Source: Octopus vulgaris | Lineage: Eukaryota | Length of the DNA: 64,000 nucleotides | NCBI GenBank assembly: GCA_951406725.2 | Contig: OX597837.1 | Coordinates: 7,192,001 to 7,256,000 of the forward strand | Direction: 5' to 3' | Shown: positions 6,912 through 63,706 of the stretch, in pieces | How positions within the stretch are numbered: the stretch's first letter is position 1 | How the letters are laid out: every line of letters starts with the position of its first letter | Position numbers and translations under genes: made by a program | Notes under the pieces: generated by a model | What the model saw: only the letters and a program-made list of their open reading frames with translations | Database searches by the model: none | Told to the model about the DNA's origin: nothing

Positions 6912-7170
6912 TCTTAGTCAGTCAGTTGATGGGCTCCACTACCTCAAATGTTCTTAAAATTTAAATCCACATCTTTGTCTATATATCTACCTTCTCTATA
7001 ATGTTGCCACTTGATATGAACATTTTTGTATTAATGGAAAACCTCTATAATTGGCTGGCTGATGAGTGCTCAGCATTTTAAAACTGTTGTAATACTTACA
7101 TTTAATAAAATGATGTAGTACGAAACGATCGTACCAAATTACCGGAGTCATTCTTGTTGCTTATTTTGAG

Positions 7171-7172
<2 letters not shown>
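6912..7172 (+). mobile_element. Penelope-like pLTR fragment inside (TA)n
   Basis: (TA)n on both sides; contains a hammerhead motif; 3' 130 bp homologous to both arms of 31357-31613. Confidence 0.65.
7048..7141 (+). ncRNA. Type I hammerhead ribozyme motif with extended helix II
   Basis: tgg-CTGATGA(7059-65)-gtgct...agtac-GAAA(7122-25)-cgatcg-TA-cca; palindromic helix III. Confidence 0.72.
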
Positions 7173-7202
<30 letters not shown>

Positions 7203-7385
7203 AGGAGCAAACCGTCAGTTACGAAGACAAGTGTTCCAGCTGATACGATCAACGGAACTGTGGTATTGAGCAGAATATTCGCTGTAGCCCAACTTTTTTA
7301 CCAAGACAAAACAATGTACATGATAACACTTCCAATCAGTTAAGATCAGAAGCCACGAGAGCACTGCCTGGTACTGCATCAGGGC

Positions 7386-7436
<51 letters not shown>

Positions 7437-7929
7437 AGCATTTATGCGTTCGAAGTTTAGTGTCTGCAAGTCCGGGTTCCGAGCGTGTTGTTATCCTACT
7501 CAAATCGATATCTATTTTATAGCCGTGTAGTATGTAATCTCCTGATCGGTACAGATCGATATGGAATGGCGAACCTGATGTAGAGCAAGAACACATTCCT
7601 GCTGTGCCAGGCTTAAGAAATACCTTTGCTGGAATGAGATGGAGAATAAGGGGGAGAGAGGGAGGAAAAAAGAAGCGAGAGAGGAAGAAATGCTCCAAGG
7701 ATTTGCTACAAAATTTTATTGGTAATCTAGTAAGGCAAGAATTTGTGTGTGAGTTTGAGAGTATGAAGGTGTGTGTGTTTGTGTGTCTGTGTGTGTGTGT
7801 GTGTATTATGTAGGGAATGCGTGTGGCTGTAAGTGTTGATAGGATTGGACGTGTGTGTATTTAAATATACACGTGTGTGTGTGTATTTATGTACGCACAG
7901 TTATGTTGATCTATAGGTACGCATTTGCA

Positions 7930-8311
7930 ATTATGTTTCATATATGTGCACGTGTATGTATGTATATATATATCTTTACGTGCTCTGTGTGTGCATATAT
8001 ATGTATGTGTGTGTGTGTATGTATGTGTGTGCGTGTATGTATATATATGCGTGTGTGTGTGTATGTTTATATATGTGTGTGTATGTATATATGTGTGTGT
8101 ATGTATATATGTGTGTGTGTATGTATATATATGTGTGTGTGTATATATATATGTGTGTGTGTGTGTATATGTATATATATGTGTGTATGTATGTATATAT
8201 ATGTGTGTATGTATATATGTGTGTGTGTATGTTTATATATGTGTGTGTGTATATGTATATATGTATGTGTATGCATATATGTATGCTTATATATGTCTGT
8301 ATATATATGTA

Positions 8312-8378
<67 letters not shown>
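7930..8378. repeat. (TA)/(TG) compound microsatellite
   Basis: Direct inspection. Confidence 0.95.
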
Positions 8379-8684
8379 GTATGACTTACGCAGAGGGCAA
8401 TTTTTTCCGGTCACTAACTTGATAGATATTCCGTGCAGATGTCGTTACTCAGAAGAATCAATGACGTTGACGATCGTTGCCGATGATGATGATGATGCTG
8501 GTAATGATAGCAACAATTATAGTAGCTGCAAAGGAGAGAAGGTCACTGTGTTACTACTGTCGGCGGTGGTCATGATGATGATGATGATGATGTTGATCGT
8601 CGTGCAGACATGAGGAGCGAGCAAATGCAGTATTTGAGTCTGGCGCTGCGTGTGTCGTGATAACGATTTAGAGAAATAATAGTA

Positions 8685-9272
8685 ACTGTTTCTACTAAGG
8701 GCATAAGGTCTGAAATTGGGGTGGGGGACGGGAACAGTCGATTATATCGACCCCAGTGCGTAACTGGTACTTATTTAATCGACCCCGAAGGGATGAAAGG
8801 CAAAGTTGACTTCGGCGGAATTTGAACTCAGAACGTAGCGGCAGACGAAATACCTAATTCTTCACTACCCACAAGGGGCTAAACATAGAGGTGACAAACA
8901 AGGACAGACAGACGGATTAAGTCGATTATATCGACCCCAGTGCGAAACTAGTAATTATCTAATCGACCCGGAAAGGATGAAAGGTAAAGTCGACCTCGGC
9001 GGAATTTGAACCCAGAACGTAACGGCGGACGAAATACCTATTTCTTCACTACCCACAAGGGTCTAAACACAGAAGGACAAACAAGGACAGACAAACGGAT
9101 TAAGTCGATTACATCGACCCCTGTGCGTAACTGTTACTTAATTTATCGACCCTGAAAGGATGAAAGGCAAAGTCGACCTCGGCGGAATTTGAACTCAGAA
9201 CTTAGCGGCAGACGAAATACGGCTACGCATTTCGCCCGGCGTGCTAACGTTTCTCCCTGCTCGGCACCTTAA
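8685..9272 (-). mobile_element. SINE family A, tandem trimer
   Basis: Reverse complement of the 4401-5032 units, three repeats. Confidence 0.88.
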
Positions 9273-10583: not shown

Positions 10584-10957
10584 AAGGCAGCGAACTGGCA
10601 GACTCGTTAGCACGCCGAACAAAATGTTCAGCGGTATTTCGACTGCCTTTACGTTCCAAGTTCAAATCCCACCGACGAAGTCGACTTGGCATTCCATCCA
10701 TCTGGGGTCGATAAATTAAGTACCTATTTCTTTACTACCCACAAGGGGCAAAACACAGAGAGGACAAACAATGACAGACAAACGGATTAAGTCGATTACA
10801 TCGACTCCAGTGCGTAACTGGTACTTAATTTATCGACCCCGAAAGGATGAAAGGCAAAGTTGACCTCTGCGGAATTTGAACTCAGAACGTAACGGCAGAC
10901 GAAATACGGCTACGAATTTCGCCCGGCGTGCTAACGTTTCTGCCAGCACGCCGCCTT
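10584..10957. mobile_element. Two family A SINEs tail-to-tail (+ 10584-10725, - 10722-10957)
   Basis: Both heads recognisable in opposite orientation; the + copy appears to resume at ~10960. Confidence 0.8.
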
Positions 10958-11135
10958 ATGAATTAAGTACCAGTTGAGCACTGATGGTGATTGGGGGGGT
11001 CGATGTAATCGGTTTATCCCCTTTCCTCGAAATTGTTGGACTCGTCCCAAGCCAATATTAGATCCACCTGACAGGGGATTGACAACAATGTCAATGTCAG
11101 CATCAACGAATGACTGGCACTTTATCAACCAGTCT

Positions 11136-11544
11136 CTTACTCTTTTACTTGTTTCAGTCATTTGACTGCGGCCATACTGGAGCACCGCCTTTAGTCGAGC
11201 AAATCAACCCCCAGGACCTATTCTTTGAAAGCCCAGTACTTATTCTATCGGTCTCTTTTGCCGAACCGCTAAGTGACGGGGACGTAAACACACCAGCATC
11301 AGTTGTCAAGCAATGCTAGAGGGACAAACACAGACACACAAACATATACACATACATCATATATATATATATACATATATACGACAGGCTTCTTTCAGTT
11401 TCCGTCTACCAAATCCACTCACAAGGCTTTGGTCGGCCCGAGGCTATAGTAGAAAACACATGCCCACGATGCCACGCAGTGGGACTGAACCCGGAACCAT
11501 GTGATTGGTTAACAAGCTACTTACTACACAACCACTCCTGCGCC
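11136..11544 (-). mobile_element. SINE family B, full length
   Basis: High similarity to 30333-30712 and to the reverse complement of 32535-32897. Confidence 0.9.
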
Positions 11545-12019: not shown

Positions 12020-12487
12020 AGTGATTATTATCATTATTCTATGTTTGACTTTTGCTTTACATTTGTACAAGTTGTCTCCAAGTCTCACCCAGAGACCTCA
12101 AGAGACAACAAGTTGGAAGTTCGTGTTGGTGTTATGCTTAGGGTACCATATATTTGGTTTTGTACTTAGTGTTGTACTAGTGAATGCCTAAAAAAACATA
12201 CGAAAATTATGTTTGTTTTAAAACTTGAGATTACAAAGAAAGTATTTTGCGTAGGATATGAGCAGTTCCCATGAGCACTATCTTTTGAATTTCTGCCATT
12301 TTGGGGTTTCCTGGTATCTGAGTTAGGTAGCAATCAGCCCCTTTTGCTATCATTCCCAGGGCACCTATGACAACAGGTATTGTTTTAGTTGTCAAGTTCC
12401 ATATCTTGCTGATTTCTATTTCAAGATCTTTATATTCGCTCAGTTTCTGGTAGGTCTTGACAGATACGTTTATATCGATTGGGACAT
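12020..12487 (-). mobile_element. 5'-truncated R4/Dong-like non-LTR retrotransposon (RLE C-terminus plus 3' UTR)
   Basis: 12487-12231 translates to VPIDINVSVKTYQKLSEYKDLEIEISKIW...IPVVIGALG...IQKIVLMGTAHILRKIL, typical of the restriction-like endonuclease C-terminus; bounded by (TAA)n-type repeats. Confidence 0.82.
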
Positions 12488-12538
12488 CATTATTATTATT
12501 ATTATCATTATTATTATTATTATTATTATTGTTATTAT

Positions 12539-12755
12539 AAAGGCGGTGAGCTGGCAGAATCGTTAACACGCCGGGCAAAATACTTGGCCGTCTTCCACCA
12601 GTCGCTACGTTTTTGAGTTCAAATTCCGCCGAGATCGATTTTGACTTTCGTCCTTTTCGGGGTCGATAAAATAAGTACCAGTTGAACACTGGAAGTCGAT
12701 GTAATCGACTCATCCCCCCACCCACCAAGCTGCCTTTGTGGCAAAAATTTGAAAT
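12539..12755 (+). mobile_element. SINE family A
   Basis: Head and core match other copies. Confidence 0.8.
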
Positions 12756-12869
12756 AAAAATAATAATAATAATAATACTTCCACCCTACCACTACCCCCA
12801 CCCATACACACTTCCCCCCAAAAAAAGTTCGAGAGCACTATAGAGTAAGAGACTACGAAGAAAGAAAAG

Positions 12870-18731: not shown

Positions 18732-19122
18732 TTCATGGGACTGTCACATTAAGTTGACAGTATACAACTGCTCTATCGTACCACCACTGCTTATATCTCT
18801 TTGAGATATCTAGAAATGTAATATTTCTTTTTTGTGTGTGATCAGTGGATTTATTTCACTGGAATTATTAAATGTTTACGAGGCCTAGACAAACATCTGC
18901 AGCTAGCAGGCCATGATACTCCAGACTGATGACGAGCAAGACTCAGAAACTAGTCTCTGGCTGCAGGCTTAGCTGGGTGGGGGTGTTTGTCTCCCCCTTG
19001 TGAACATAAGGACACAGGAAATGTGTCAAGGCCGACATGAGGCGTTGATGCTTCCTAAGGCTAAATAGCGGTGGTGTGTTTCCCTTCATGGGACTGTCAC
19101 ATTAAGTTGACAGTATACAACT
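18732..19122 (+). mobile_element. 353-bp hammerhead-containing unit with 38-bp terminal direct repeat (retrozyme- or PLE-like)
   Basis: ttcatgggactgtcacattaagttgacagtatacaact at 18732-18769 and 19085-19122; hammerhead in between. Confidence 0.55.
18897..18975 (+). ncRNA. Minimal type I hammerhead ribozyme motif
   Basis: ccaga-CTGATGA(18926-32)-cGAGcaagaCTCa-GAAA(18946-49)-ctag-TC-tctgg; perfect 5-bp helix I plus distal cagcta/tagctg. Confidence 0.75.
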
Positions 19123-19592
19123 ACTCTTCATTTTCTTATGGTTCTCTATATTGAAAGTACTTTACGCGGTCTGAAGGTTGTTGCTATTGTCTCTTTAAAG
19201 AAAGCTAAAATATAAATACTTAATGTACAAACAACTTACATATTCACTTAAAAATATTTCTAAATGATTAAGATATTGTGTTTAACAAAATCGAAAATCG
19301 TACTTTTTTTAGTTGTCAACTCACTGTCCAATAGAAAGATTAGTTTCTTCCCTTTTTAGGATGAAGAATATTTTCGGAACATTTTCCTATTATTCACCGT
19401 TTTCGGTATTTATACCCCACCACCGAAAACCTTTAATATCTCGAAAACTACTTTACCGATTTACTCGAAACTTGATTCATTCCGTCCGTATTAACATTTC
19501 AGGGTATATTTAGTACACAGTATTTTCCCATTATGCGCCAGTTTGGCTGAGTAACATTGCAAGCAAACAAGATTCAATCTTACTTTTGATAT

Positions 19593-19639
<47 letters not shown>

Positions 19640-19660
19640 TATGAATTTTCTATAAATATA

Positions 19661-19700
19661 TTATTCGCGATGAATCTCTCGAGATGAAAGCGCTAAATAA
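19661..19700 (+). ncRNA. Degenerate minimal hammerhead motif
   Basis: ttatt-cgcGATGA-atctc/gagat-GAAA-gcgc-TA-aataa in an ~80-bp insert between (TA)n runs; 5' core mutated. Confidence 0.5.
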
Positions 19701-19720
19701 ATTCCTGACGACTTCCCTTA

Positions 19721-23950: not shown

Positions 23951-24382
23951 TTTATACATGTATATACATATGTGTGTGTGTGTGTCTGTGTATGTATATG
24001 TAATAATTTCATGTTCGGGCATACACTTTGTAGTATGCTGTTTAAAACCCGTTTTCAAAGATTCTCGTGAATTCCATTTCCTTTTATATGTGTATATACG
24101 CATTTTTAAAATGTGTCTGTATGTATGCATGTGTAATATATATGTATGTATTTGTGTATGTATACATTTAGATATCTATGTCGAGAGAGGGAGAGAGAGA
24201 CATTTGTATAGATCTAAGTGTATCTACGTGTATATATATATATATATATATATAAGTTCAAATAGAGGTTACAATCCTCATTACGTGATAGTAAAATCCA
24301 ATGAAGGCACTGTTTTATACCATGTTCTTTATGCATAAATATTATCAGTTAACCGTTTGCAGCCGTTTACTCCGCATGCAGG

Positions 24383-24507
24383 AATTGAACACCTATCTGG
24401 TATATCTTTAACTACTTCTGACGAGATTCGACTTTCAAATAATTTTTAAATTTATTAATTAATTTTCTGAAGGTCAAGAATTGAAACAGCTGTAAGAGGT
24501 GTCAATT
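24383..24507 (+). ncRNA. Type I hammerhead motif with extended helix II
   Basis: CTGACGA(24418-24)-gattc gactttca...tgaaggtc aa gaatt-GAAA(24483-86)-cagctg-TA; distal helix I aattgaacacct/aggtgtcaatt; proximal helix I imperfect. Confidence 0.65.
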
Positions 24508-24597
24508 TTTTTGATTAATAAATAATAATTTATTAATTGTCCCTCTATTTTCTTATCTTATTTAAACACACACACACATATATATATACATATATTA

Positions 24598-24625: not shown

Positions 24626-24629
<4 letters not shown>

Positions 24630-24940
24630 TAATATTAAGGGATCAGCAAAGGAATGCATCACCACATACCGAAGTTCAGAAATAGCAGCCAAAATCTAAG
24701 CCATTTCTTCTACCCTCTGCCTGGATGAATAAGATTCAAGTATTATGGTTTCTCTAGTAGACTTTTTTAAGTAGAAGAAATGGCTTAGATTTTGGCTGCT
24801 ATTTCTGAACTTCGGTATGTGGTGATGCATTCCTTTGCTGATCCCTTAATATTAGTATTACTAGAATTTACCGTATAACGGTCCTGTTTTCATACCGAAT
24901 TCTACTTGGTGAAATTTATTGATTACTTCGTAACTAATTA

Positions 24941-24944
<4 letters not shown>
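24626..24944. mobile_element. Fold-back insert in (TA)n: perfect 88-bp inverted repeat, 57-bp spacer, ~86-bp tail
   Basis: 24626-24713 is the exact reverse complement of 24771-24858; related to 46536-46790. Confidence 0.88.
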
Positions 24945-25434: not shown

Positions 25435-26336
25435 ATTGAAGGAAGATGAGATAAAACGAAGTATATTAGGTTTATACTCTAGAAGAAAAAGTCGTTTACA
25501 TTTCGAGCATATGCTCTTCTACAAAAGTAAAAGACGAGGCTACTTTAGCAGCAAAGATTGAAGAAAAATATTTTAATGCGTAAATCATGTAACATAGGCT
25601 CAACTTCGTATATAGAGCCTAAATATGCATAAAGAACATGGTATAAAACAGCGCCTTCATTGGATTTTACTATCGCGTAATGAGGTTTGTAACCTCTATT
25701 TGAACTATACATATATATATATATATATATATCACCACCACCGCTTTGAAGAATTTATATATCACCACCACCGCTTTGAAGAATTTTTGGACTAACAAAT
25801 CGACCCTAGTACTTGTGATAAATAAAATACCACCACCACTACTACTAATGATGATGATGATGATAATAATGATCTTGGCACGTGGCTAGCAATTTTAGAG
25901 AGGAGGTAGCTAGGGGATTGCATTAACACTCCAGTACAAAACTGGTACTTATTTTTATCGATCGCGTAAGGATAAAAGGTAAAGTCAAGCTCGTTACTCA
26001 GAACGTATCGAGAGCAATTAAATTCCGTTAAGCACTTCGTCCGATACGCTGACGATGTTGACAATTTGAGATTTCTGTGGGGAAAATAAAAACGTGGTAT
26101 ATGCCATCAAATACTGCATATGCATATCCATGTGTGTGTTAGTGGTTGATAATGTAGAGTATGCGTTTTCGATTTTTATGTTGGTTTACTTGTAACCTGT
26201 CGAGTTTTGCTCGATATTGACCATGGAGTGGTTTTTCTGTCCACGTTTATCCTTTTCTTTATTTTGAAATTCTGTTTTGATTTTAGTCCTTTTTTTTCTA
26301 TTTTAAAAGTTGTCTGTTGTTTTGTCAGCATCTTAA

Positions 26337-27606: not shown

Positions 27607-28450
27607 AAGGGCGGTGAGCTGGCAGAAACGTTAGCACGCCGGGTGAAATGCGTAGCCGTATTCCGTCTGCCGTTACGTTCTGAGTTCAAATTCCGCCGAG
27701 GTCGACTTTGCCTTTCATCCTTTCGGGGTTGATTAAATAAGTACCAGTTACCCACTGGGGTCGATATAATCGACTTAATCCGTTTGTCTGTCCTTGTTTG
27801 TCCCTTCTGTGTTTAGCCCCTTGTGGGTAGTAAAGAAATAGATATTTAATGACTCTACGTTCTGAGTTCAAATTCCGCCGAGGTCGACTTTGCCTTTTAT
27901 CCTTTCGGAGTCGATCAATTAAATACCAGTGAAACACTGGGGTTAATGTAATCGACTAGTCCTCTTCCCACAAATTTCAGGCCTTGTGCCTATAGTAGAA
28001 AGGATTATTATCATCGTTATCGTTGGTGAGCTAAGGCGGCGAGCTGGCAGAAACGTTAGCACGCCAGGCGAAATGCTTAGCAATATTTCGTTTGTCTTTA
28101 TGTTCTGAGTTCAAATTCCGCCGAGGTCGACTTCGCCTTTCATCATTTCGGGGTCGATAATTTAAGTACCAGTTACGCACTAGGGTCGATGTAATCGACT
28201 TAATCCCTTTATATGTCCTTGTTTGTCCCCTCTATGTTTAGCCCCTTGTGGGCAATAAAGAAATAAGTAACTTTAGCACGCCGGGCGAAATGCTTAGCAG
28301 CATTTCGCCTGTCTTTACGTTCTGAGTTCAAATTCCACCGAGGTCGACTTTGGCTTTCATCCTTTCGGAGTCGATAAATTAAGTACCTGTTGCGTACTGG
28401 GGTCGATATAATCGACTGGCCTCCTTCCCCAAAAATTTCGGGCCTTGTGC
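27607..28450 (+). mobile_element. Cluster of four family A SINE units (two dimers)
   Basis: Heads at ~27607 and ~28033, each followed by a second 5'-truncated unit. Confidence 0.87.
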
Positions 28451-29985: not shown

Positions 29986-30332
29986 AGAATAAGATATAAG
30001 CAACAACCACCGCCTTAACTTCATTATAAAAAACCGTACTTCAAACTTGCTATATTTTCCCATTCACCTCTATTTTCTCTTTTCTTTCTTCTTTCTCTAG
30101 TAACATTTTTTCCTCTTCCATTCCTCCTCATAGCGGGTTCCCCCTCACTTCATATTTATTTATCTATCTCATTTTTTTCTGTGATATTCATTCACCCTTA
30201 TTTTAATTTTCTAATTCTTACTTCATTCTCTTTCCTATTTTATTAACTCACAACATCTCACGTGTGGCTAAGTCTATCTTGTTCTTTGTATTTTCCTATT
30301 TGTACCTACGATTTCCACCATCCGATTTATAT

Positions 30333-30712
30333 ACTCTTTTACTCCTTTTACTTGTTTCAGTCATTTGACTGCGGCCATGCTGGAGCACCGCCTTTAGTCG
30401 AGCAAATCGACCCCAGGACTTATTCTTTGTAAGCCTAGTACTTATTCTATCGGTCTCTTTTGCCGAACCGCTAAGTTACGGGGACGTAAACACACCAGCA
30501 CCGGTTGTCAAGCGATGTTGGGCGGACAAACACAGACACACATACATACATATATACGACAGGCTTCTTCCCGTTTCCGTCTACCAAATCCACTCACAAA
30601 GCTTTGGCCGGTCCGAGGCTATAGCAGAAGACACTTGCCCAAGGTGCCACGCAGTGAGACTGAACCCGGAAACATGTGGTTGGAAAGCAAGCTATTTACC
30701 ACACAACCACTC
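30333..30712 (-). mobile_element. SINE family B, full length
   Basis: Near-consensus copy with tactcttt repeated tail. Confidence 0.9.
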
Positions 30713-31356
30713 CGACACCCATATCTAATTCTTAATCTTTATTTGACTCTCCTTAATGTTGATATAATTTTCCGTTACGGTCAATCGCTTTTACGTAACA
30801 AATTACTCTCATCTTAAAAAGTAGCTGCCCAATCAGCTTTCACCGTTTATTCCAGGATTTGGAAATCATGAATACTTATACATTATTGTACTCTTCTGAA
30901 TACTCGCGACTGCCTGATGACCGGTTATGTGAAACTCTGAGTAACAATTTTCGAAGTTTTTCCATCTTCAGTAATATCAATGTATCTCCTCTTCTGATTT
31001 TAATTATTTAAATCCTTCCTCTTAGGGAAGAAACTGGTTTCTACCAATTATACAAAGCTTCATCATGAAAATATAGATAACGAAAACAATGTCACATTTT
31101 AATCTTGAGAAAAGTCTTGCATAGTTTCACTGTTCCGCTTAAAGACTGTATTTGTAATGTGTGAGTCGGTTGATTTCTTTTACTGACAATCCAAGCTTAT
31201 CAAGAGTGTCACTTAAGCAAGCCAAGTACACCAATTGTTATTGGCTTGAAAGTAAATTTGTAATCTGGATATAGAAACTGGAGATTTCGAAGCAGTTGTC
31301 CATTGTTATCTTCTTTCTTTTTGTGTGTGTAATACTCAAATTAAGTATATATATAT

Positions 31357-31710
31357 ACTCAAAATAAGCAACAAGAATAACTTCGGTAATTTGATACGAT
31401 CGTTTCACGTTACATCATTTTATTAAATGTTGTAAGTATTACAGCAGTTTTAAAATTCTGAGCACTCATCAGCCATTAATAGAGGTTCTTATTAATGGCT
31501 GATGAGTGCTCAGCATTTTAAAACTGCTGTAATACTTACAACATTTAATAAAATGATGTAGCGTGATGACGATCGTACAAAATTACCGAAGATATTCTTG
31601 TTGCTTATTTTGATTATAACCACCCCATGGATTTATATGGATAACACCATACAACATTCTGGTGCATCTAACTTAAGTACCACATTCATTTGAATCTAAA
31701 TTTTACTGAA

Positions 31711-31712
<2 letters not shown>
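31357..31712. mobile_element. Fold-back Penelope-like pLTR insert with a hammerhead motif in each arm
   Basis: 31359-31481 is the imperfect reverse complement of 31490-31613, ~8-nt loop; ~100-bp tail then (TA)n; homologous to 7040-7172. Confidence 0.82.
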
Positions 31713-31748
<36 letters not shown>

Positions 31749-32489
31749 GATAAATTGCTAACATTTTAATTTTCTTCTCCACCCTTGAAAATAAACTTGT
31801 CATAGTGTAACGGAGCCAACTTAGAGAAGGGAGGAATCGTCCCTAGTTCTTAACAAATACTTTGCTTATCGATACTCAGATTCGAACTCAAAGCGCACTG
31901 AGGCAGATCACCACAAATCATTCTATCTGATGCTCAAACGACTCTGCTAATTCGCTGGTAAATAGATAAAGAAAATATTATCCGTATTGAAATAAGGGTA
32001 AGGTCTGATATGTCCGACAGCAAAAAGAAAAAGGAATCATACAAGATGCTGTTCTAGCATCACTGTAGTCCAATCTGTGAAACCTGTTGAAGAATATTTG
32101 CTTCATGGCCAGATAACGAACATGGGTACAGCTTCAACAAATGTGTTACATTCTGACTTTGTGTAGGATACTTATCGGGAAAGCGTCATCTATTTCTCTG
32201 CATATTGAAAAAAAAAAAGATTGAAGAGCTTTAATCGATTTTCGAAACTTAATAGGTTCTTGTCAGAGGTGCCCACATTGTTTTGTGTGTTTGTGCGTAA
32301 CAGGTTAACTTAGCTCCACGTGTTTCGTGCACGGAAAAGAAAAGCAGGCCCTCGGACATATGAAGACCATGCTTTTTCACGTCCACGAAACTTTAAGTAA
32401 CATGAGAAGCTAATTCAGCCTGTTATTCAATAAGTCCTACTCCAACTACGTGTGTCGAGTGCTACTTCCATTCATCTGTTCACTTCCTC

Positions 32490-37242: not shown

Positions 37243-38857
37243 CAGTGGGGGAAAATAAATATTCGTACATGTCAAAATTCTTTATTTATTTAATTTCTAA
37301 TGAACATAAATGGGATATACCAATACTATATTTGCATACACATGTATAAATTAAGAATATGCAAAAGAAACTAATAAATTATAGTAACTAAGGAATTTAT
37401 ATTCAATTATAAATATTTAGGGGTGAAAAAAGTATTCATACAGAACATAGATAACTGATAATTCTGATTTAATACTTCGTAGCATAACCATTATTCAGTT
37501 CCACTTCAACCAAGATCTTCTTGTAGTTCTTAATCAATGACTCGCATGTTTCTATAGGAATTTTTTCCCATTCTTCTTGATTTTTCTTCAAATCTGCAAT
37601 GCACATTGGAGCTCTTGAATGAATTCTAATTTTCAAATAATGCCACACATTTTCAACGGGGTTCAAGTCAGGTGACTGGCTTGGCCATTCTGATAATTTT
37701 ATATTGTGATCGACAATCTATTTTTTGGTAGACTTTGCCATGTGCTTAGGGTTGTTATCCTGTTTTAAAACCCACCCTTCACAAAGCTGGAGCTTTTCTA
37801 CAGAGTCCCATAAATTATTGTTTAAAATATTTTGGTACATCTCTGCATTCATTCTACCATCTATCACATGTAAATTGCCAGTACCATTTGCAGAGAAACA
37901 CCCCCACACCATGATGTTGCCACCTCCAAACTTTATGGTAGGAATTGTGTTTTTCGGCGAATAGGCAGTACCATCTTTCCTCCAAACATGGCTACGCGAA
38001 TTTCTTCCAAGCAATTCAATTTTCGACTCGTCTGTCCATAGAACATTTTCCCAGAATGTATCAGGTTTATCTTTATGTTCATAAACAAATTTTAAACGGG
38101 CATCTCTATGCCTTTTAGTCAACAGCGGAGTTTTTCTAAGAGAGTGTGACTTCAGTTCATTCCTATGAAGTTCATTGCTGATTGTTCGTAGTGTAACACT
38201 AGTCCCTGAAGCTAACAAATCTTCTTGCAACTTCTTTCTGGTGATCATTGCGTTTTTTTTTTTCGATTCTTCGCTTCATTTTTCTTAAAGATCTAGGGAA
38301 AATCTTGCATGGTGCACTAGATCATATTCTGTTTTCAACAGTTCCCCGATTTTTTATATCTTTGAATAAATGAAGATATGGTAGAAAATGGAATACAAAG
38401 GGTCTCTGATATTTTCCTGTAACTTTTACCTCTTTTCTACTGTTCAATAATTAAGGTTTTCACTGAATTTGTGAGTTCTTTAGTATCGAAATAATGGTGA
38501 AAAGTACTTTAAGTTGTCTCAGTGCTGAATGAAGAAGCTAGCGTTTTGACACTTATAAATGACAACTGATATGATTATTGGAACAAACGAGAAAGTTTTA
38601 GTAAAAAAAAATATTTTAGCAGTATTTTATGGCATAGAAAATCATAAATTTATTCTGTACGAATACTTTTTTCACTCCTAAATATTTATAATTATATATA
38701 AACTCATTAGTTACTATAATTTATTAGTTTCTTTTGCATATTCTTAGTTTATGCATGTGTATACAAATATAGTATTGGTATATCCCATTTATGTTCATTA
38801 GAAATTAAATAAATTAAGAATTTTTGACAATGTACGAATATTTATTTCCCCCCACTG
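37243..38857 (-). mobile_element. Full-length Tc1-family DNA transposon, IR-DR type (1615 bp)
   Basis: TA flanks (37241-42, 38858-59); ~200-bp TIRs starting cagtggggg (37243-37445, ~38654-38857) with an inner repeat of the terminal motif (gaaaaaagtattc.tacag). Confidence 0.96.
37469..38490 (-). pseudogene. Tc1 DD34E transposase pseudogene
   Basis: N-terminal TKELT...GKSYRKIS..L.IPFST; WTDESK; VWGCFS; QDNNPKH then 34 residues to E in SPDLNPVENVW; ends GYATKY; at least three in-frame stops (one at 37718-20). Confidence 0.95.
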
Positions 38858-39162
38858 TATGTACATATACACACATACATATATATACACATACATACAT
38901 ATATATACACATACATATATATATACATATATACATATATATATACATACATATATATATACATATATACATATACATACATACATATATATATATATAT
39001 ACACACACACACTAACATACATAAACGGGTAACCCTGCGATGGACCGGTCTTCCGTTTAGGGAGAATGTTGGTCTGCCCACCTTAGCCAACATTGTTGCA
39101 TCATTCGAAAGCTAAAACAATACGTGGCTCCGCATTTGCGACCAGCCGGATCCGGTCGATTA

Positions 39163-40522: not shown

Positions 40523-40869
40523 CCACTGAGCTATGCACCTTCTCCCCATATATAGACAAAATACGACCTTACATGGTCCATACTTAGACACACGAGTCCC
40601 TATTACGCTATACGGTATATCTCGCAAATGCCAATTACGTTCCGAGGAATCACTCTCGTTAATGTTAACAAAGGAACGCATTATAAGTAAATTCACCGAA
40701 CAATTACCCAGATGCCTATACACAACTAAACACACATTCGCATATTACAATCCAGACCATACATAACTAGATATATACATGGCGCCCATAACTCTTTATA
40801 GACATGAACTTGAGGAACCATATTTGAATAACTTATTATTTGGCATATAATCTTGCAATCTGGATCCAT

Positions 40870-41180
40870 ATATATACATACATATATGTGTGTATATATA
40901 TGCATAGACATAATATATACATCTGTATATACATATACATAATATATACATCTATATATATATATGTATATACATAATATATATCTGTATATATATATAT
41001 ATACATAATATATACATCTGTATATACATATACATAATATACACATCTGTATATACATATACATAATATACACATCTGTATATGCATATATATATATATA
41101 TATCTGTATATACTGTAACATAATATATACATCTGTATATGCATGTATATATGTATATATATATATCTGCATATACATGT
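40870..41180. repeat. ~30-bp minisatellite derived from TA repeats
   Basis: Repeated catctgtatatacatatacataatata units. Confidence 0.85.
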
Positions 41181-41459
41181 CTGTGTGTATGCGTGTATAT
41201 ATTTACGGATGTGCATACGCGAGTGTATTAACACCTCTGTGTATGAGTCAAACTTTGTACAGACGTCTGTATCTTGATATGAATGCACATATCTATATAT
41301 GCTATGTACGTATATATATATATATATATACACATACATACACACACGTGTACCTGCAGGAATTCCTATACATACATATGTATGTATTCGTCCATACGTG
41401 TGCGTATGTATATGCCCATGTACTTGGATGGGTGTGCGTGAGCACGTATGTATATGTGC

Positions 41460-41499
<40 letters not shown>

Positions 41500-41777
41500 C
41501 TATCTATGTATATGTTCGTCTAAGCACGAATACAAAAAACAGTCTCGTCTAAGTATTCTCTTCCTTTCAGCTTCTTTATCCTTTTCTTTCTCTTAACAGT
41601 TACAACAGCGAAGATTCATAACGTCATTTTCTCTAAACTAGAATGTATAAGTTTCACGTTCATTTTTGAATTTTTTGCATTTCAATAACTTTTCTCTGTT
41701 TTTTTACTCATTCTTGAATTTGATGGACATATAGCGGTACGTAAGCTAACTCAGGAAATCTCTAGTGAAACTTTTTT

Positions 41778-41832
41778 TATTGGTGTACCCGAAGAGACCC
41801 AGAACGGGTCGAAACACGTGTCGTGCCCAATA
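41778..41832 (+). ncRNA. Compact type I hammerhead motif (core variant CCGAAGA)
   Basis: tattggtgtac-CCGAAGA-gaccc agaac gggtc-GAAA-cacgtg-TC-gtgcccaata. Confidence 0.7.
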
Positions 41833-42192
41833 AAATCTTTTACTCATTCCATCTATTTTATTAATACTGTTATCCCAATCACCACTACGAAGGACTCATT
41901 ATCTATTTATATATTTTCTGTTATTTCTCCATTATATATATAAATTATTCTGGTATGGTAGGATCAGCAATAAAAGTACTCCATCCTGTGAGAAGTAAAT
42001 ATCATTTAATGTACACTATAAATGAGCTAATAGTTTCTTGCTGTGGAAGCACGTGGTCAGACATGTTTTATAACGTACCATGCGTGTGTGAATATATGTA
42101 AATTTTGTTTCCCTTGGAAGTTTTGAATTTTTTTTTTCTTTTTGTTACTGATCCAGCTATTTCAATTTTGCTCCTCTTCAAGGAACTAATAT

Positions 42193-45258: not shown

Positions 45259-45265
<7 letters not shown>

Positions 45266-45570
45266 TAGTTATCACTAAGCTAATATGGCAGTCCAGAAAT
45301 ATAGGACGAATGCTGCTGTTGATTAGCTCCAAGAGGCCATCGCCTCTAGCTAGCTAAGTGACATATGAACCTGTGTCCATTATATTCTTCGAACAGGGGA
45401 GACACGGGTTCTTGTAACACATAGCTAGCTAGAGGTGATGGCCTCTTGGAGCTAATTAACAGCAGCATTCGTCCTATATTTCTGGACTACCATATTAGCT
45501 TGGTGATAACTATTAATATCCAGTACCACCGACCATAGTCTCCTTTAGAGAGACTTGGAAGTTTTAATAT
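45259..45570. mobile_element. Fold-back insert in (TA)n: ~119-bp arms, ~23-nt loop, ~50-bp tail
   Basis: 45259-45377 is the near-exact reverse complement of 45401-45519. Confidence 0.87.
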
Positions 45571-45592
45571 TTATATATGTATATATATAAAA

Positions 45593-45775
45593 TGAGGTTG
45601 TGTTTTCCAAAATGGAGTCAAACACCTTTCTCCATGTGATCGGCTGGAAAAATTGTTAAGAAACTAGGATACTTTCCACTTTTCTTAACATAAAACCAAT
45701 GGTAGCCTTAATTCACAAATAAAGAAGTTATATCCATCAATGCAGTGTTGAACACTCATTTTTATCATTTGACTA
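45593..45775 (+). mobile_element. Unfolded copy of the 60927-61195 family
   Basis: Colinear with 61063-61191 and with the reverse complement of 60942-61063; between TA runs. Confidence 0.75.
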
Positions 45776-45953: not shown

Positions 45954-46535
45954 CATGTGACTTTTCTGACTAGAATTTCAAGTTTTTAAAATCGAATATT
46001 TTTATACAATCAGCATACAAGACAACTCTAAAATGTGATTTTGCTGCAGAAGTTATATAGAAGGTTATGTTATTTTGTGTGTGAATGTTTATACCCCGTA
46101 ATTTTGCTTGGGAAAGTAGAATGCCGCAAACTGTGAATGAGGTCATCGTTCTCAGTCAATGAATTCACTCATTTAACTCTATGGTGACGTAGAAGTATGG
46201 GATAAAAGAAAAAAAAAATATTTGCTAATGGTTAGTGACAGGAAGAACATCCAGCTGTAAAAATAATGCTTCGGTAATATGTATCCCTACAAAACATGCT
46301 ATCATGGAAAAATAGACCTAAAACAAAATGAATGAACAGATATATGTGAAAAGAAAAGGGACACATACTTGAGGTTCCAAGCAGTGGTAAAGTCTAATAC
46401 CTCTGTGTGACACTTAGCTGGGTCTTCTACTGTAGCCCAATCAAACTACGGCTTGAGTGGATTTAAAAACCAAAAGACTATTCTTTCTCCTTATACACAC
46501 ACTGTGTATATACATACATACATATATATATATAT

Positions 46536-46790
46536 GGTATATTTAAACATTACTTTATATAATTAGGGTTCAGCAAAAAAAATTCACTTTACCACATACC
46601 GAACTTTTAGAAATAGTAGCCAAAGAACTTAGCATTTTCTCTCGGTATGTGGTAAAGTAAATATTTTTTGCTGAACCCTAATTATATAAAGTAATGTTTA
46701 AATATACCGTAAATGGTCCTTTTACATACTGAACACTGCTTGGTAAAATTATCAATTACTAATTAATTAATTTTACACTTATTATTATTG
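46536..46790. mobile_element. Fold-back insert in (TA)n: ~67-bp arms, ~39-bp spacer, ~80-bp tail
   Basis: 46536-46602 vs 46642-46708; shares accacataccgaa, agaaatag.agccaaa and tail motifs with 24626-24944. Confidence 0.85.
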
Positions 46791-48496: not shown

Positions 48497-48940
48497 AATA
48501 TAGTGAATTCATGTGATGGTACTTATTTCAGTTTTAAATGAAGTCAGATAACGATCAAATTACTGCTGCTAAGTTAATCTAATAAATTAATCTAATATGT
48601 ACACATGATTCTATAAAATTCAACAATTTTTTTTAGCCTTCAATTATATATATATTTTTTTATACATTTGTAGCTCATTTATACTACTAAATATGTCTCC
48701 CCACCTCCTGATCTAGACAAAAAATTTGTAAAACATACAGGATTTTCTAGGGAAAGATATACTGGCATTCTTACTACTTAAATGCTACCTTCCTTTCTGA
48801 ACAAGCAAAATGATTAACCAGGCTTCCAGAAGATTTTATATCACTTTTTCACTACCGATAAGACAATGAGAGCATAAGAAAGAAAGAGGTTACTTTTTTA
48901 TTTATATATATATATATATATATATAAATATATATATATA

Positions 48941-49214
48941 TTTAATAGACACAACACATATTCTTATGTGTTACTAATAGTTTTCTATGCTGGTAACATG
49001 CCAAATAAGGAATTATAATATGTGTAACACCCCAACACAGTCATCAGGTACAAACCACATACTCTTGGAAATGACATTTGCATTTCAGAATATTATTTAT
49101 TAGCTATGTCTGATGACTGTGTTGCGATGTTACACATCATAATTCATTATTTGACATGTTCTCAGGATAGGAAACTACTAGTAGCACATAAAAACATGTA
49201 TTGTGTCAATTAAA
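48941..49214. mobile_element. Fold-back insert with a hammerhead motif in each arm
   Basis: 48941-49047 is the imperfect reverse complement of 49110-49214; + arm CTGATGA(49110-16)...GAAA(49171-74)-ctactag-TA; TA-rich flanks. Confidence 0.75.
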
Positions 49215-51359
49215 TAAATATATATAACCTATCCTTAAAGACTCACATACCAAATCGAAACAAGGTCAGTATCTTAAACGATCTTCCAATATACACTCAT
49301 ATGAATGAGTGTGAGTACATGCTCACATGCCATGTGCAACAATATCAACAATATACACACATAAATGCATGCATGATTTTATGTAAAATAACTGAAATAT
49401 GCAATCCTATTTACATTTAAGAAAACAGAAAACCAATCAACTAAAGAAATGACTGTGTGTGTCTTTGTGTTTATTTACCCACCACTTGAGAACCACAGTT
49501 GGTTTGTTTATGTTCACAGTGATAGAATACCAGAGTTTTAAAAAAAAGGCACTGGGTTGATTTCTTTAACTAAACTCTCAAGGTAGAGGCCCCAGTAGGG
49601 CCGTAGTCCAATGACTGAAACATATAAAAGAAGATACAACACTAGGTTTACTCACAGCCACCAACAAAGATGTTTTGCATATCTGAAATGAACATTATCA
49701 GATGATCATTTCATTGGTGGCTGCCACCTTTGGCAGTGTCTTTTTTGCCCTGCTTCTACCACGGTGTCAGAGAGACCAAAGTCATGGGAATGACAATTGC
49801 ATTTTAGAATACTGTTTGATTCCAGTTCAATTTCATTTTACCAAATTTCTGTTGCAAGGGTTCAGTTAGACCCTGAGATTAAGGGATCTCAACAATCAAA
49901 TCCATTTCAACCATTATCACCATATTTCCTTAAGTTTGTCTGCTTCTTCACTTTAACCCTCACCAAAGTCAGTTTTCAGCTCTAACCTGCCCCCTACTTC
50001 CAAAAACAAAATGGGAACTACTCAGGTTTAAGCATTTTACTATTGATGTTCTACAGCTAAAAAAAAAAGAGCCTCTACAATTTGCTAGAAACAGCAGCTA
50101 CATTCTCCCACATCACACAACACTAAAAGAAAAATGGAAGGAAACATCGGATACTGTAATTCTACTTACCCTATAAAAACAAACATAAAATATCAGATTG
50201 GTCTGTCATGGCTGGCACAGAAGACCTTTGACCATGGGTCAGCTCGATCAGGATTGACCTGGAGCTAAATAACAACAACAATTATAACAGCAAAGATAAT
50301 AATAGGAAATTTGGAAGCCCCGATTATGGAAAACCAAGACAGATCAGCAGTCGATTATATTCTTAGATAGGTACAAAAGGTCTCAGGTTAATAAGAGAAC
50401 TGAAGTGAGAGATCGTGTGATGTTCATGTACTTCCGAAATGCAGTAGGTGGTAATGATATACTGGAGGTGGTGGTGGTTGTTGGTGGAATGGGGTGCGGG
50501 GAATGAAATAGCAAAGACCCAAATTTTAGCACTATGTTACTGACTGAGAAATTACTGAATCCCTTCACTTTGAATAAACAGGGTATTAAATCATTAAATT
50601 CCACCTACCCCTTCCTGAAAAAAAAAAAAAAAAAAAATGTATGTTGGTTAGTAAAAGCTTAATGGAGTTTGGGGGTTCCCATGAGATAGTTTTGATAAGA
50701 AACTGAAAGCAAATTTGTGAGTTTTGGGGGGACTGCATGATTTTAGGGTTTGCTTGCAAATTAAAACTAATTAATCCATTTTAACCCAATGAGGAACAAA
50801 AAGAACATTCAAGATCCTTAACGAATATACATGTTTAAGTGTTTCTACTTTATAAATATATATATATCGTATGTGTGTGTGTGTGTATACTTCTGTTCAC
50901 ATGTATGTATAATTTCATGTATATAAATGCACATATAATGTATATATGATATACATCTAATGCATGTCATATATACATAGAGATTTATATATATTTTTAT
51001 ATAAATATGTGTGTATACATGTGCATGCTGCTTGTATTTATAAGGTCCCTAACATAACAATACATACAGGGGGTGTGTGTATGCATGCATGCACGTCTCA
51101 GGCAAGGGACACGTGTGTGATTTTTTTAGTCCATTATTTCCTTCAAGACTAGCTGTTCATTCAATGTACAAACATTCCAACAAACTATAAACAGGCCAAA
51201 AATAAAACAAATAAAAACAGGAGGCATTGCTCAAAAAAACCAGAAAAAATATACAATCAAGAAAAAAATGCAGTTTGTTTTTTTTTTCATTTCATTTTCA
51301 AGAGATAGCATGCTCCACATTACTACAGCACAATTACATTTCATGTCATTCATGTGTTG

Positions 51360-59964: not shown

Positions 59965-59975
59965 CTATACATATA

Positions 59976-60021
<46 letters not shown>

Positions 60022-60067
60022 CATATATATATAAATATTTATATATATATATGTGTACATATGTAAA

Positions 60068-60107
<40 letters not shown>

Positions 60108-60221
60108 CATACATATATAAATATTTATATATATATATATGTGTACATATGTAAATGCATATATATATATACATACATATATAATATAAATATTATATAT
60201 ATATATGTGTACATATGTAAA

Positions 60222-60257
<36 letters not shown>

Positions 60258-60340
60258 TACATATGTAAAAATGCATATATATAAACGTGTATATATATGT
60301 GTGTAAGTACATATGTAAAAATGCATATATATATGTGTGT
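59965..60340. repeat. TA tract with repeated gtacatatgtaaatgc units
   Basis: Direct inspection. Confidence 0.9.
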
Positions 60341-60858
60341 GTGAAGACATAAATTTGGTATAAGTTTTGATCTTTTTTTGTAAGCAAAACCAAATGTGAT
60401 TTCTCCATCACACTTCATTAGCTTAGATTTCTTTCCATCCTAAATTAAAAATAATTGGCCTAATAAATGTAAAATAGAGTGGGAGTGTATGTTTGTGTGT
60501 ACATATATATATGTGTGTGTGTGTGTGTATGTTTGCTCACTTATACATATCTATATTACATACGTGCGTATGTGTGTGTGTGTATCTGTGCATGTTTGTT
60601 CAGATATAGATACCTATATTATGTGTATGTGTGAGTGTGTGTGATGTACATGCTTATTCATATGTTTGAAGCTGAAGCTTTCATCCATTGCTACTCAGGA
60701 GTTTTCTGTGAAAAACGGAATTAGTAAACTCCAAGTACGAACAGACAGAAAAACAAGTTTCTACCAAATGAATAAACTTTATTACATGCACGCAGTACTT
60801 AATCGTAAATCCTAACACACAAACATATTTATATACACATAACACACACACACATGTG

Positions 60859-60898
<40 letters not shown>

Positions 60899-60926
60899 TA
60901 TATGTATATATATATATTATATATAT

Positions 60927-61195
60927 AAAAATGTCGAACAATGAAAATGAGTGCTCAACACTGCATTGGTGGATATAATTTCTTTATTTATGAATCAAGG
61001 CTACCATTGGTTTTATGTTAAGAAAAGTAGGAAGATATCTTGGTGTCTTGACAATTTTTCAAGGTGTTTTCTAAAATGGAGGCAAACAACTTTCTCCATG
61101 TGATCAGCTTGAAAAATTGTTACGCCACTAGAATATTTTTCTACTTTTCTTTACATGAAACCAACGGTAGCATTAATTCACAAATAAAGAACAGA
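60927..61195. mobile_element. Fold-back insert in (TA)n with decayed hammerhead-like geometry
   Basis: 60980-61063 vs 61108-61191 inverted; family copy at 45593. Confidence 0.72.
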
Positions 61196-62159
61196 TATAT
61201 ATATATATACATACATACATGCATATATATATAAACACACGTAATGTATGTTGAAATATGAATGATCTCTAGAACAGCAACAGGAAGAAGTTATGAGATT
61301 TTCAAAGCAAATGATAAAAATAAAAAAAAACATGATAAATTAATATTACAAAAGACTAGAAAATAAATTAGGGTTCACCAGATATAATCAGCCCAAAGTT
61401 ACACGTCTCATAAATGCTTGCACACAAATACATTCACACATATACATACATATCAGTCTAGTTTAAAAGATATTTCACTGGTTTCAGCAGGTTTCTTTGG
61501 GTGGGTGGGTGGGTGGGTCCTTATTTTATTTCAAGCTAATCCCTCTGTGACACCATACTTATATATTATTCTGTCTTAGCTGGGCCCCTAATTCTTCAAA
61601 ATCGCTAATTTCATTATATATCAATTTAATTAATTTTATTAATTATTTATAAATATCGTCAGTAAAGTTATTATAGTTTCCTTCTCTAATGCAACCCCTT
61701 GTGGCAAATAAAGAAATCACTATTATTATATTTGTTAATTACTAATTAATAATATTACTGTGATTATTACTGCAATAACAAGTTTTAAATTTTATGATTA
61801 TTATTATTATTATCATCATTATAATTATTATTACCACAATACCAATGATAGTAATTATCTTCATCATCATGTGAATCATTTAGTTATGATAGTAATACCT
61901 TTTTCAAAAATATTAATTTGCATGTGTGTGTATATATATATATATATATCCTGTTTGTGTATATACAAGTGTGTACTTCTACCCTAATGTAAATTTTAGA
62001 TATTTATATAATTGCTCTTTGCTTGCAATGCAATTTAAAGAGAAGAAAAAAAAAACTTAATCTCTTGCAAAACGGGGGTTAAAAGAAAACTAATGAAAAT
62101 AAAATTACAAATCTTAATTCAAATCTTTAAAATTTGTTGGAAATAATAAATTCTTTCTC

Positions 62160-62365
62160 TCTACTACTAGCACAGGGCCTGAAGTTTTGTGGTGGGGGGG
62201 TGGAGGGGAAAATGCTAGTTGGTTAGATTGATCCCCTCCCAAAAAAAGTATGAAAGTCAAAGTCGCTATTGTTGGTTATATTTGAACTCAGAACATAAAG
62301 ATGGACGAAATACCACTAAGCATTTTGCCCAGCATGCTAATGATTCTGCCACCTCATCACCTTCA
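62160..62365 (-). mobile_element. Diverged SINE family A
   Basis: tttgaactcagaac...gacgaaatacc.ctaagcatttt gcccagcatgctaatgattctgcca. Confidence 0.7.
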
Positions 62366-63556
62366 CTAGTAGTAGTAGTAGTAATAATAATAATAATGAT
62401 TTTAGGCACAACGCCAATAATTTTTGAGGGTAATTTTTACTAAATTCTTTGTTATATTTTAAATTAATTGAAATTAGGCAATACCATAAATCTCATTACT
62501 CTGACAGGTACTTTAAGGACCCCAAAAGAGTGAAAGGGGAAGATTTTTTCCATTACCTCTATGTATGTACACGTGTATGTGAATGTATACACATTTGAGA
62601 GAATGCGTGCACATGTATATGAATGTGAGTGTGTGACTTTTTTTTCTTTATAAGAGAAATTAGATGAGGAAAGGATGTATTTTTTTAATGTGATAAATAT
62701 AAATAATTATAATCATCATATACAGACACACAGACAGACATACATACAATCTGAAGGGGATGAAAGGGTAGAATTTAATGGAAAAAAAAAAAAATTATGA
62801 GAAATTACGAAATGAAATTCCAAGGAAGAATTAAAAATAGATTTAAAATGATGAAAAAACATTTTAAATGACTGAATAATAATGACAAAAAAATTTATGG
62901 AATAATAATATATTTTAAATATAATGTCTGAGTATTTCAAAATGTTTTATTTTGTATTTTTGTTGTCTTTTACGGTAAATCAGATCCTGGATTTTGGTAA
63001 GCATTTCTTTCTGTATGTTGTTGTTACTATTATTATTATTATTATGATTATTATTATTTATCATTTATACATGGTGTGCTGCGTGTCTCATTTCATTGAG
63101 TAAGTAGTTTTAAAAAGAAAACAAAGGTTGTTTTTAATTTATTGATTAATTAACTTCCACCAAACGAAGGGGAAAAAGTTAATTAATAATAATGATGATA
63201 ATAATAATGGTAATAATTCTGGCAAGAAAGCACATTATCTAGGATGTATGTATGAATCTTGGTGGCTTTAAATAAGGAAATGAACGCACACATACACCAC
63301 TAAATATACTCACACACACACACATACAGAGAGAGAGAAAATGCACATGCACGCACGCACACACTTACATAGAAAGACATGCTCGCCTTTGCATATACAT
63401 GCATAACAAGAATAGAGATTCAAAGAATCAAAGAGAGCTCATTGTAAAGCACTCCACCTAGTGCACGGCTATCATGAGAAAGCATGGTTAAGACTAGGAT
63501 ATAACCTCACCATCATTCTGAAAATCCCAGAATTGCAATGGTGGAGAGTATTATGA

Positions 63557-63706
63557 AAATTGATCGATGAAGGAAAGTGAAAGAATTATTTATTACATTT
63601 GTTGACACCTGTTTTGTAATCTTATGTAAGTTACATAGATTATGAAACAGCTGTCAACAAATGGAATAAACATTCCTTTATTTCATTTCTTTCATCCAAT
63701 CAATTT
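63557..63706. repeat. ~73-bp-arm hairpin containing the hammerhead 3' half GAAACAGCTGTC
   Basis: catttgttgacacctgttttgtaatct...ttacatagattatgaaacagctgtcaacaaatg; followed by (TA)n. Confidence 0.7.

Follow-up and report, generated by a model that had tools for sequence, protein, structure and literature searches.

The present work concerns a 64,000-nt stretch of the Octopus vulgaris genome (contig OX597837.1, positions 7,192,001 to 7,256,000; hereafter, the window) and the short inserts, many of them folded back on themselves or bearing hammerhead ribozyme motifs, that lie between its positions 6912 and 63706. Self-BLAST of the window recovered all seven fold-backs listed in the original prediction, which had been made from the sequence alone, with extents of 24626-24858, 31354-31618, 45259-45519, 46530-46714, 48929-49226, 60980-61191 (with a tail from 60927) and 63548-63716. 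The 13 window inserts fall into ten families (here termed A to J), in agreement with their earlier description as unrelated sequence contexts, save that the motifs at 7126 and 31570 belong to a single family (A). The claim that most inserts abut (TA)n also holds, since a TA run is found at one or both ends of 12 of the 13; the exception is the 18950 insert, the family of which (E) is not TA-targeted (1/25 hits). TA runs of at least six units occur at 1.8 per kb in the window versus 0.98 per kb in a genome sample of 60 evenly placed 10-kb stretches (600 kb from 26 contigs), and fold-backs are several-fold denser in the window, the same script returning 4 in 64 kb versus 28 hairpins in the 600-kb sample, about 8-10 of which carry the TA signature.

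The inserts are given below, in terms of Penelope-like elements (PLEs), their pseudo-long terminal repeats (pLTRs) and open reading frames (ORFs), and of two preferred 3' end sites per family, a proximal (short) and a distal (long) one, the latter providing a tail.

6912..7170, plus strand: family A, 5'-truncated 3' end assigned to a Hydra-clade PLE, stopping at the proximal site, with TA runs on both sides; intact hammerhead with core at 7059, 56-nt helix II and 8-nt palindrome at 7125-7132.
18732..19127, plus strand: family E, 1.1 copies of a circularly permuted 353-nt non-coding unit; hammerhead core at 18926, without TA flanks.
19638..19720, plus strand: family F, old fragment between TA runs; hammerhead-like layout with broken core, without ORF link.
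24255..24562, plus strand: family D, inverted distal tail (24255-24310) and forward pLTR piece; core at 24418, 59-nt helix II.
24629..24944, plus strand: family B fold-back, short-ended inverted arm and long-ended forward arm of a tandem unit, the hammerhead of which lies just 5' of the portion present.
31358..31712, plus strand: family A fold-back; the minus arm stops at the proximal site and the plus arm has a 94-nt tail.
40554..41930, plus strand: family G copy; remnant of an endonuclease ORF end (40556-40835; tblastn E 1e-26), microsatellite-filled 3' untranslated region (UTR) and hammerhead (41783-41828).
45263..45575, plus strand: family H fold-back, part of a tandem non-coding unit of 361 nt; one of its arms has a 53-nt tail.
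45592..45773, plus strand: family I, single 3' end.
46536..46780, plus strand: fold-back of a diverged family B relative; tail of about 90 nt.
48942..49220, plus strand: family C fold-back; hammerhead cores at 49110 (plus) and 49047 (minus), 54-56-nt helix II, odd palindrome.
60927..61194, minus strand: family I fold-back, in which the minus strand carries the long-ended arm; longer copies have an endonuclease of Hydra type upstream.
63557..63706, strand not assigned: family J fold-back, the turning point of which falls within a hairpin like helix II; of a hammerhead-like motif, the 3' half is present.

Positions 24255-24337, which include the chimeric junction of the D insert, recur in inverted orientation 1.3 kb off at 25624-25706 (83 bp, 96%), a secondary duplication that again ends in TA. 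The left flank of the 31357 insert (31332-31368) repeats the first 14 bases of the element before a short TA run and resembles an aborted first priming.

Genome searches were carried out for each insert, scoring the best 35-40 candidates and fetching 15-30 loci. Family A has 3352 candidates genome-wide; its copies keep the 3' end fixed, are truncated to different extents on the 5' side and are often accompanied by an inverted copy, and walking upstream of them reveals an endonuclease and then reverse transcriptase (RT) motifs. In families G, C and I the end of the endonuclease runs straight into the 3' region of the family, and an in-line endonuclease was seen for family D in 2 of 15 far-upstream loci; no ORF link was found for F and J in the first loci examined. 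A search with the element protein returned 10143 candidate places, in many of which a frame is open over 700-1090 aa, and the 20 places fetched include several complete pLTR-ORF-pLTR units with one hammerhead per pLTR and an inverted 5' copy (loci L338 and L342), the intact ORFs of complete copies spanning 950-1070 aa. The 6912..7170 insert matches the pLTR of one such copy (L348), in which this same family A pLTR stands on both sides of a frameshifted ORF; pLTR-to-pLTR spacing is 3.5 kb in L348 and 4.6-4.7 kb in A2, a sister family of A. A canonical hammerhead is present in the pLTRs of A, C, D and G, and TA follows 38/46 hits in A, 17/26 in G, 25/41 in C and 13/27 in I (totals that include non-terminal hits), versus 5/62 hits to the end of a short interspersed nuclear element (SINE) used as control. 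Judging from these links, we identify A, C, G and I as 3' ends of Hydra-clade PLEs, with D a likely further case.

The clade assignment is based on protein motifs. The ORFs of L338-L346 are single, with YRDD, then CxC..CP and then a C-terminal endonuclease; RWK and DKT (instead of DKG) are found in L338 and most aligned homologues; and a CxCX5C linker, CxxC and CxH motifs flanking conserved E and N residues, and the lack of CCHH were read by eye in L338, as were Hydra-type endonuclease motifs in the endonuclease pieces of A, G, I and C. In the literature, cited here and below for the portions surveyed, the Hydra clade is defined by RWK, DKT, CxCX5C and CxxC/CxH, and almost all of its families insert into (TA)n (PMC8557442). 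Placement in this clade by motifs, together with a visual match to the Fig. S7 rows of the same work, points to Hydra. A Neptune/Nematis identity, which would entail a CX2-5CxxC linker, CCHH and DKG, was dropped because RWK, DKT and CxCX5C fit the Hydra definition; Naiad elements, expected to have an N-terminal endonuclease and no canonical hammerhead, were likewise discarded, the endonuclease abutting the 3' UTR in A, C, G and I. Pfam and PDB sequence searches of the element proteins gave no informative match, so that the RT-endonuclease assignment rests on motifs and homologues, the closest database relative being an Octopus protein (P0001, 75%). This protein, a Hydra-PLE fragment, carries the public label of a probable serine/threonine kinase, probably due to its Asn-rich stretch. 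Repeats of the (AAT)n type expand in frame in the RT-endonuclease linker, yielding poly-Asn tracts of variable length (L090, L092, L108, L344, L345). Two near-complete Hydra elements, 98-99.8% identical and one of them with an intact 981-residue frame, lie head to head in L341:1-9901, and in the pLTR of family A a conserved sequence resembling a TATA box, about 240 nt upstream of the hammerhead (L011, L028), is a candidate internal promoter.

Hammerhead motifs were sought with a strict descriptor (core, helix II of at least 4 bp, GAAA, palindromic helix III of at least 6 nt, UH and helix I of at least 3 bp), which gave 2 matches in the window and 0 in 150 block-wise dinucleotide shuffles. A descriptor widened to odd palindromes and the U3-A8 core, and tuned on the window's own families, gave three motifs (7059, 41789 and 49110), versus a mean of 0.01 and a maximum of 1 in 200 shuffles. 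In the 600-kb sample, 19 strict motifs were found in 9 of the 60 stretches, the expectation being 0.17 (30 shuffles), and (TA)4 lies at most 300 nt downstream of 11 of the 14 outermost motifs (background, 23%). Both the excess over shuffled sequence and the proximity to TA put forward in the original prediction are hence confirmed, and motif occurrence is genome-wide, the window not being special in kind; at the strict motif density of ~32 per Mb, a 2.8-Gb genome would hold some 90,000 motifs if the sample is typical.

The palindromes of helix III were confirmed at every position for which a hammerhead layout had been claimed, and the motifs at 7126, 41815 and 49175 are intact. Those at 18950 and 24487 are slightly decayed and pass relaxed criteria only, their relatives passing the strict ones, and two others proved to be broken copies: the 31570 plus-arm motif has a mutated GAAA box, with an intact motif on the minus arm (core at 31472), and the 19690 motif has a broken core here, the core departing from the canonical sequence at most of 15 loci. 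Families J and F are old, with cores of a non-canonical type. Family G has a U4C core; family H has a U3-A8 variant, with one palindromic helix III swapped for another among copies; and no intact core was seen in the copies of family I examined. Rfam Hammerhead_1 matches 41783-41828 at 33.9 bits for a cut-off of 34 (among the best 150 of 458 matches, a list made up mostly of miRNA models on TA/CA repeats), and at gathering score no hammerhead was matched in 10 loci. The supposition that standard annotation would miss these elements is thus sustained for Rfam and for the Pfam version used, but not for de novo repeat annotation: 31 PLE families with recent activity figure in an octopus annotation (PMC13282606).

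The two core boxes of the hammerheads in families A, B, C and D are 54-60 nt apart, the spacing corresponding to an extended helix II. In an alignment of ten A-related hammerheads (69% identity, invariant core), pairing is kept by two-sided changes in helix I, in the extended helix II and in its apical hairpin at 9 of 25 pairs, and 93.5% of cells are paired, compared with 30-47% in slid controls. The covariation score, anticipated as a mark of true helices among related copies, was reached by 0/500 shuffles. The invariant core and the helix pairing supported by covariation argue for membership in the type I hammerheads. Further hammerhead families have helix II spans of 85-97 nt (L344, oriented 9484; L353; L189). 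We found no published account of a 55-60-nt helix II with covarying pairs, although one may stand in Repbase or in Lunse et al., whose work on small PLE hammerheads is cited here via a review (PMC6765202). Given that hammerheads with a long helix II evade both Rfam and short-spacer descriptors, the number of hammerheads in genomes of this sort is likely underestimated.

The anatomy of the insertions is consistent across families. The two 3' end sites lie about 50-120 nt apart (A, 94; B, 99; C, 60-65; H, 53; G, about 115-120; I, 44-59 nt) and, in A and A2, both are upstream of the start codon. At each of the eight well-sampled sites (A, A2, B and H) the template reads TAT, TATA or ATAT(AT), a 3-6-nt overlap with the target for which the chance is 0.059 per site, the A and A2 sites being homologous. 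These letters were read with references running through the ends; the family A reference is partly microsatellite, and from it the ends at 467 and 558-559 alone were taken. Random-sample counts were set aside for D, the reference of which contains 50 nt of SINE sequence (hits to it serving as control), and for C, the reference of which contains low-complexity DNA. Inverted pairs combine one long and one short arm in 43 of the 46 classifiable cases in A, A2, B and H (long plus long, 3; short plus short, 0; 7 further pairs unclassified) and in 13 cases in C, G and I (short plus short, 1). Among 48 pairs, the arms are nested in 17, equal in 8 and non-nested in 23, the tail-less arm extending further 5' than the tailed one in the latter number, and fold-back copying of a single cDNA cannot yield such non-nested pairs. 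Sister arms are more alike than the median other copy in 42/43 pairs, and at least as alike as the best other copy in 15. Non-inverted family A copies end at the short site in 20 cases and at the long one in 25. TA runs are also present at the 5' junctions of non-inverted copies, in B (7/15) and A (6/19, about 9 of these 19 alignments stopping short of the true junction) and in only 1/11 in H, for a background of 5-6% at a random point. No published report of two fixed 3' ends per family with a TAT(A) overlap, one end per arm and non-nested arms was found in the papers surveyed.

Families B, E and H consist of head-to-tail non-coding units of about 564-599, 353 and 361 nt, respectively, with a longest ORF put at 42-51 aa and, for ATG-initiated frames, at 30-58 aa. 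The tandem arrangement, with one type I hammerhead per unit, is seen in B (L048, L385, L387), in H (L164, L171, L175), in the 1.1-mer of family E in the window and in L247. Candidates are spread over many contigs (B, 1534; E, 2909; H, 2469); tblastn gave no RT or endonuclease match in 25 family B loci, and in family B copies spanning the unit start the unit's own end clearly precedes it in 7/25 loci, an ORF in none. Locus L247 is a young 359-nt array comprising a 5.6-mer and an inverted 1.8-mer copy, with five forward and two inverted hammerheads, TA on both sides and a tail. By their sequence organization, B, E and H are retrozyme-like units, and mobilization by Hydra PLEs appears likely, since B, H and L247 share the tail, inversion and TA signature with Hydra elements; no published retrozyme-like units with this signature were found in the papers surveyed. 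With four families linked to an endonuclease/RT ORF, a fifth probably so and three made up of non-coding tandem units, the predicted radiation of TA-targeting PLEs and non-autonomous derivatives is supported.

Taken together, these results lead us to propose, with a probability of roughly 80%, that the inserts are truncated copies of several Hydra PLEs and of hammerhead units probably mobilized by them, and that each fold-back probably results from priming by the two strands of a cut (TA)n tract on the same RNA, at two fixed start sites. Family identity, ORF links, tandem units, the two 3' end sites, TA flanks and arm geometry are the observations from which we infer the reaction steps. An RT-endonuclease dimer, by analogy with the PLE of the anole, would nick both strands of the self-complementary TA tract, and each DNA 3' end would anneal to a UAU(A) stretch of 3-6 nt, for which the RNA would offer two sites, 50-120 nt from each other, that follow the hammerhead and precede the start codon. 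One cDNA would begin at the distal site, giving rise to the tail, and the other at the proximal site, without a tail; both would stop early and be joined head to head, often via a few shared bases, and a single priming event would leave just one truncated copy. Retrozyme-like RNAs offering the same two sites would be inserted in trans. The hammerhead is predicted to cut multimeric read-through RNA into units, acting as a monomer or as a dimer through its palindromic helix III; the arms of a fold-back, being on opposite strands, cannot dimerize within one transcript. The PLE protein of the anole is predicted to form a dimer; in vitro, it both cuts and extends the two strands and starts at a pair of internal sites, by which the tail is defined (PMC11167929).

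Several points weigh against this proposal. The start site of the anole PLE is reported not to be homologous to the cut DNA (PMC11167929), and no empty site was found among four contig sets over 30950-32300, the contigs breaking at repeats. For the young L247 array, no RNA record was listed. Both arms of the 48941 family C fold-back stop, exceptionally, at the proximal site, and the 63557 family J fold-back has two equal ends. The loci analyzed are best matches of queries that often bear a tail, which favors long ends, although this bias would inflate long plus long pairs rather than long plus short ones. The likeness of sister arms could stem from gene conversion or from one source locus. No DNA similarity was detected between B, E and H and the Hydra pLTRs tested, so that their partner is deduced from the insertion signature only, and family E, with TA at 1/25 hits and mostly a single end, may be moved by another PLE clade or mechanism. 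As regards the ribozyme, the count of two-sided pairs was matched by 42/500 shuffles, the ten aligned hammerheads are related sequences, and single-strand folding gives z < -2 in only 2/10, most being no better than shuffles.

Other explanations were considered. The inverted arm might be generated by self-priming, in which the cDNA or antisense template folds back and copies itself, the endonuclease then resolving the product at a second site and leaving the tail. Self-priming has been put forward as the source of PLE repeats arranged head to head (PMC3846280), and resolution by the endonuclease as that of the tail (PMC8557442), and the variants shared by the arms, together with the 17 nested and 8 equal pairs, are in line with it. 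However, in the 23 pairs in which the tail-less arm is the longer one towards 5', neither arm can be a copy of the other unless deletions took place later, and single copies of family A stop at the proximal site too, making this explanation unlikely. A shade less probable still is that B, E and H reflect satellite-like local amplification of solo pLTRs, as proposed in a 2026 preprint (10.64898/2026.07.22.740005), or are pLTRs of autonomous elements that were not reached, scoring having covered the 40 best candidates of each search. Against this stand the dispersal of the three families over many contigs, the TA on both sides and the tail of the L247 array, and the sequence preceding the family B unit start, which is, where clear, the unit's own end and never an ORF. 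We deem it improbable that the TA runs were added by the reverse transcriptase on insertion, through slippage or in a telomerase-like manner, instead of being chosen as target, (TA)n being the published target of Hydra elements (PMC8557442). The lack of a readable empty site would accommodate such addition, but TA runs also stand at the 5' junctions of non-inverted copies of B and A. Finally, Tc1/mariner derivatives typically have inverted repeats at TA, one Tc1/mariner-type element is present in the window (37240-38860) and family J has two equal ends and no ORF link, but the notion that the fold-backs are TA-inserting miniature inverted-repeat transposable elements (MITEs) with chance or incidental hammerheads is hardly credible, because arm length and turning point vary in every copy, ends are unequal, many copies are one-armed, arms run on into RT and endonuclease ORFs and motifs are far above shuffles; MITEs, with fixed terminal inverted repeats and a constant interior, were ruled out for A, B, C, D, G, H and I.

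The element at 37240-38860 is a DNA transposon with 205-bp terminal inverted repeats (94%) that adjoins a TA run and contains a transposase remnant (37718-38275, minus strand); from its motifs, we take it to be of the Tc1/mariner family. The end of an open frame at 12231-12785 (minus strand) resembles the C-terminus of a non-LTR retrotransposon protein. Two very abundant SINE-like families, often in tandem or nested, occupy 2760-3340, 4401-5034, 8676-9269, 10584-11540, 27610-28450, 30332-30712 and other positions.

The elements described here resemble the known Hydra-clade PLEs, including Hydra-1_Obim of Octopus bimaculoides, in RWK, DKT, CxCX5C and a C-terminal endonuclease with CxxC and CxH, as well as in (TA)n targets, type I hammerheads with a near-palindromic helix III, 5' truncation, inverted copy and tail (PMC8557442), and an octopus Hydra family with a (TA)n target and a hammerhead is already catalogued in the supplement of that work. 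They differ in their size (a unit of about 4.6 kb with an ORF of 950-1070 aa and Asn-rich inserts, versus generally <3 kb), in their tails (50-120 versus 30-40 nt), in their abundance (about 10,000 RT candidate places versus "a small number of families") and in helix II, which spans 54-60 nt in A, C and D, whereas in none of the 26 Hydra rows of File S2 does the stem exceed 7 bp or the loop 10 nt, a long loop II being listed in the supplement only for two spike-moss PLE-X elements (PMC8557442). Minimal PLE hammerheads share the palindromic helix III, the U3-A8 variant and opposite-strand motif pairs 100-700 bp apart, but have a helix II of 6-8 bp (PMC4209133). Asn-rich ORF inserts are also known in the Penelopes of the rotifer Adineta (PMC3846280), and a tail on one inverted pLTR and pLTR-driven trans-mobilization have both been described (PMC4209133, PMC3846280). 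Like Poseidon PAc of Anolis, which cuts both strands, the octopus elements have an AT-rich target and a pair of internal start sites by which the tail is defined; unlike them, the PAc sites lie inside the ORF and are not target-homologous, whereas here they lie 5' of the ATG with a 3-6-nt TA overlap (PMC11167929). Non-LTR retrozymes, finally, resemble B, E and H in having non-coding units that run head to tail and contain a single type I hammerhead, the 353 nt of E and 361 nt of H falling within the 170-400-nt range (PMC7229834; 10.64898/2026.07.22.740005). In contrast, the 564-599-nt unit and long helix II of B and the U3-A8 core of H depart from that type (PMC7229834), and the tail, inverted copy and TA targeting of B and H are foreign to the descriptions surveyed (PMC7229834; 10.64898/2026.07.22.740005).

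The system is therefore mostly of a known kind, made up of Hydra PLEs and non-LTR retrozymes, which renders the finding less surprising. Its value is mechanistic, for the origin of tail-plus-inverted PLE insertions and the mobilizer of retrozymes have both been called open (PMC11167929; 10.64898/2026.07.22.740005). The many intact Hydra ORFs, the young retrozyme arrays with the same signature and the exact start sites make both questions directly testable. Tentatively, and with odds that we place below even, these insertions may be a record of the Penelope reaction itself, in a scheme in which one RT dimer holding one RNA would prime on the two strands of a TA run, with a protomer at each UAU(A) site, and the long covarying helix II would constitute a new protein-binding or cleavage-gating module common to Hydra elements and retrozymes. 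The octopus lineage is known for heavy RNA editing; if this joint scheme were true, hairpins of 100-400 bp, present in tens of thousands, could be substrates for RNA editing or enter small-RNA pathways, and the missing mobilizer of animal retrozymes would have been named.

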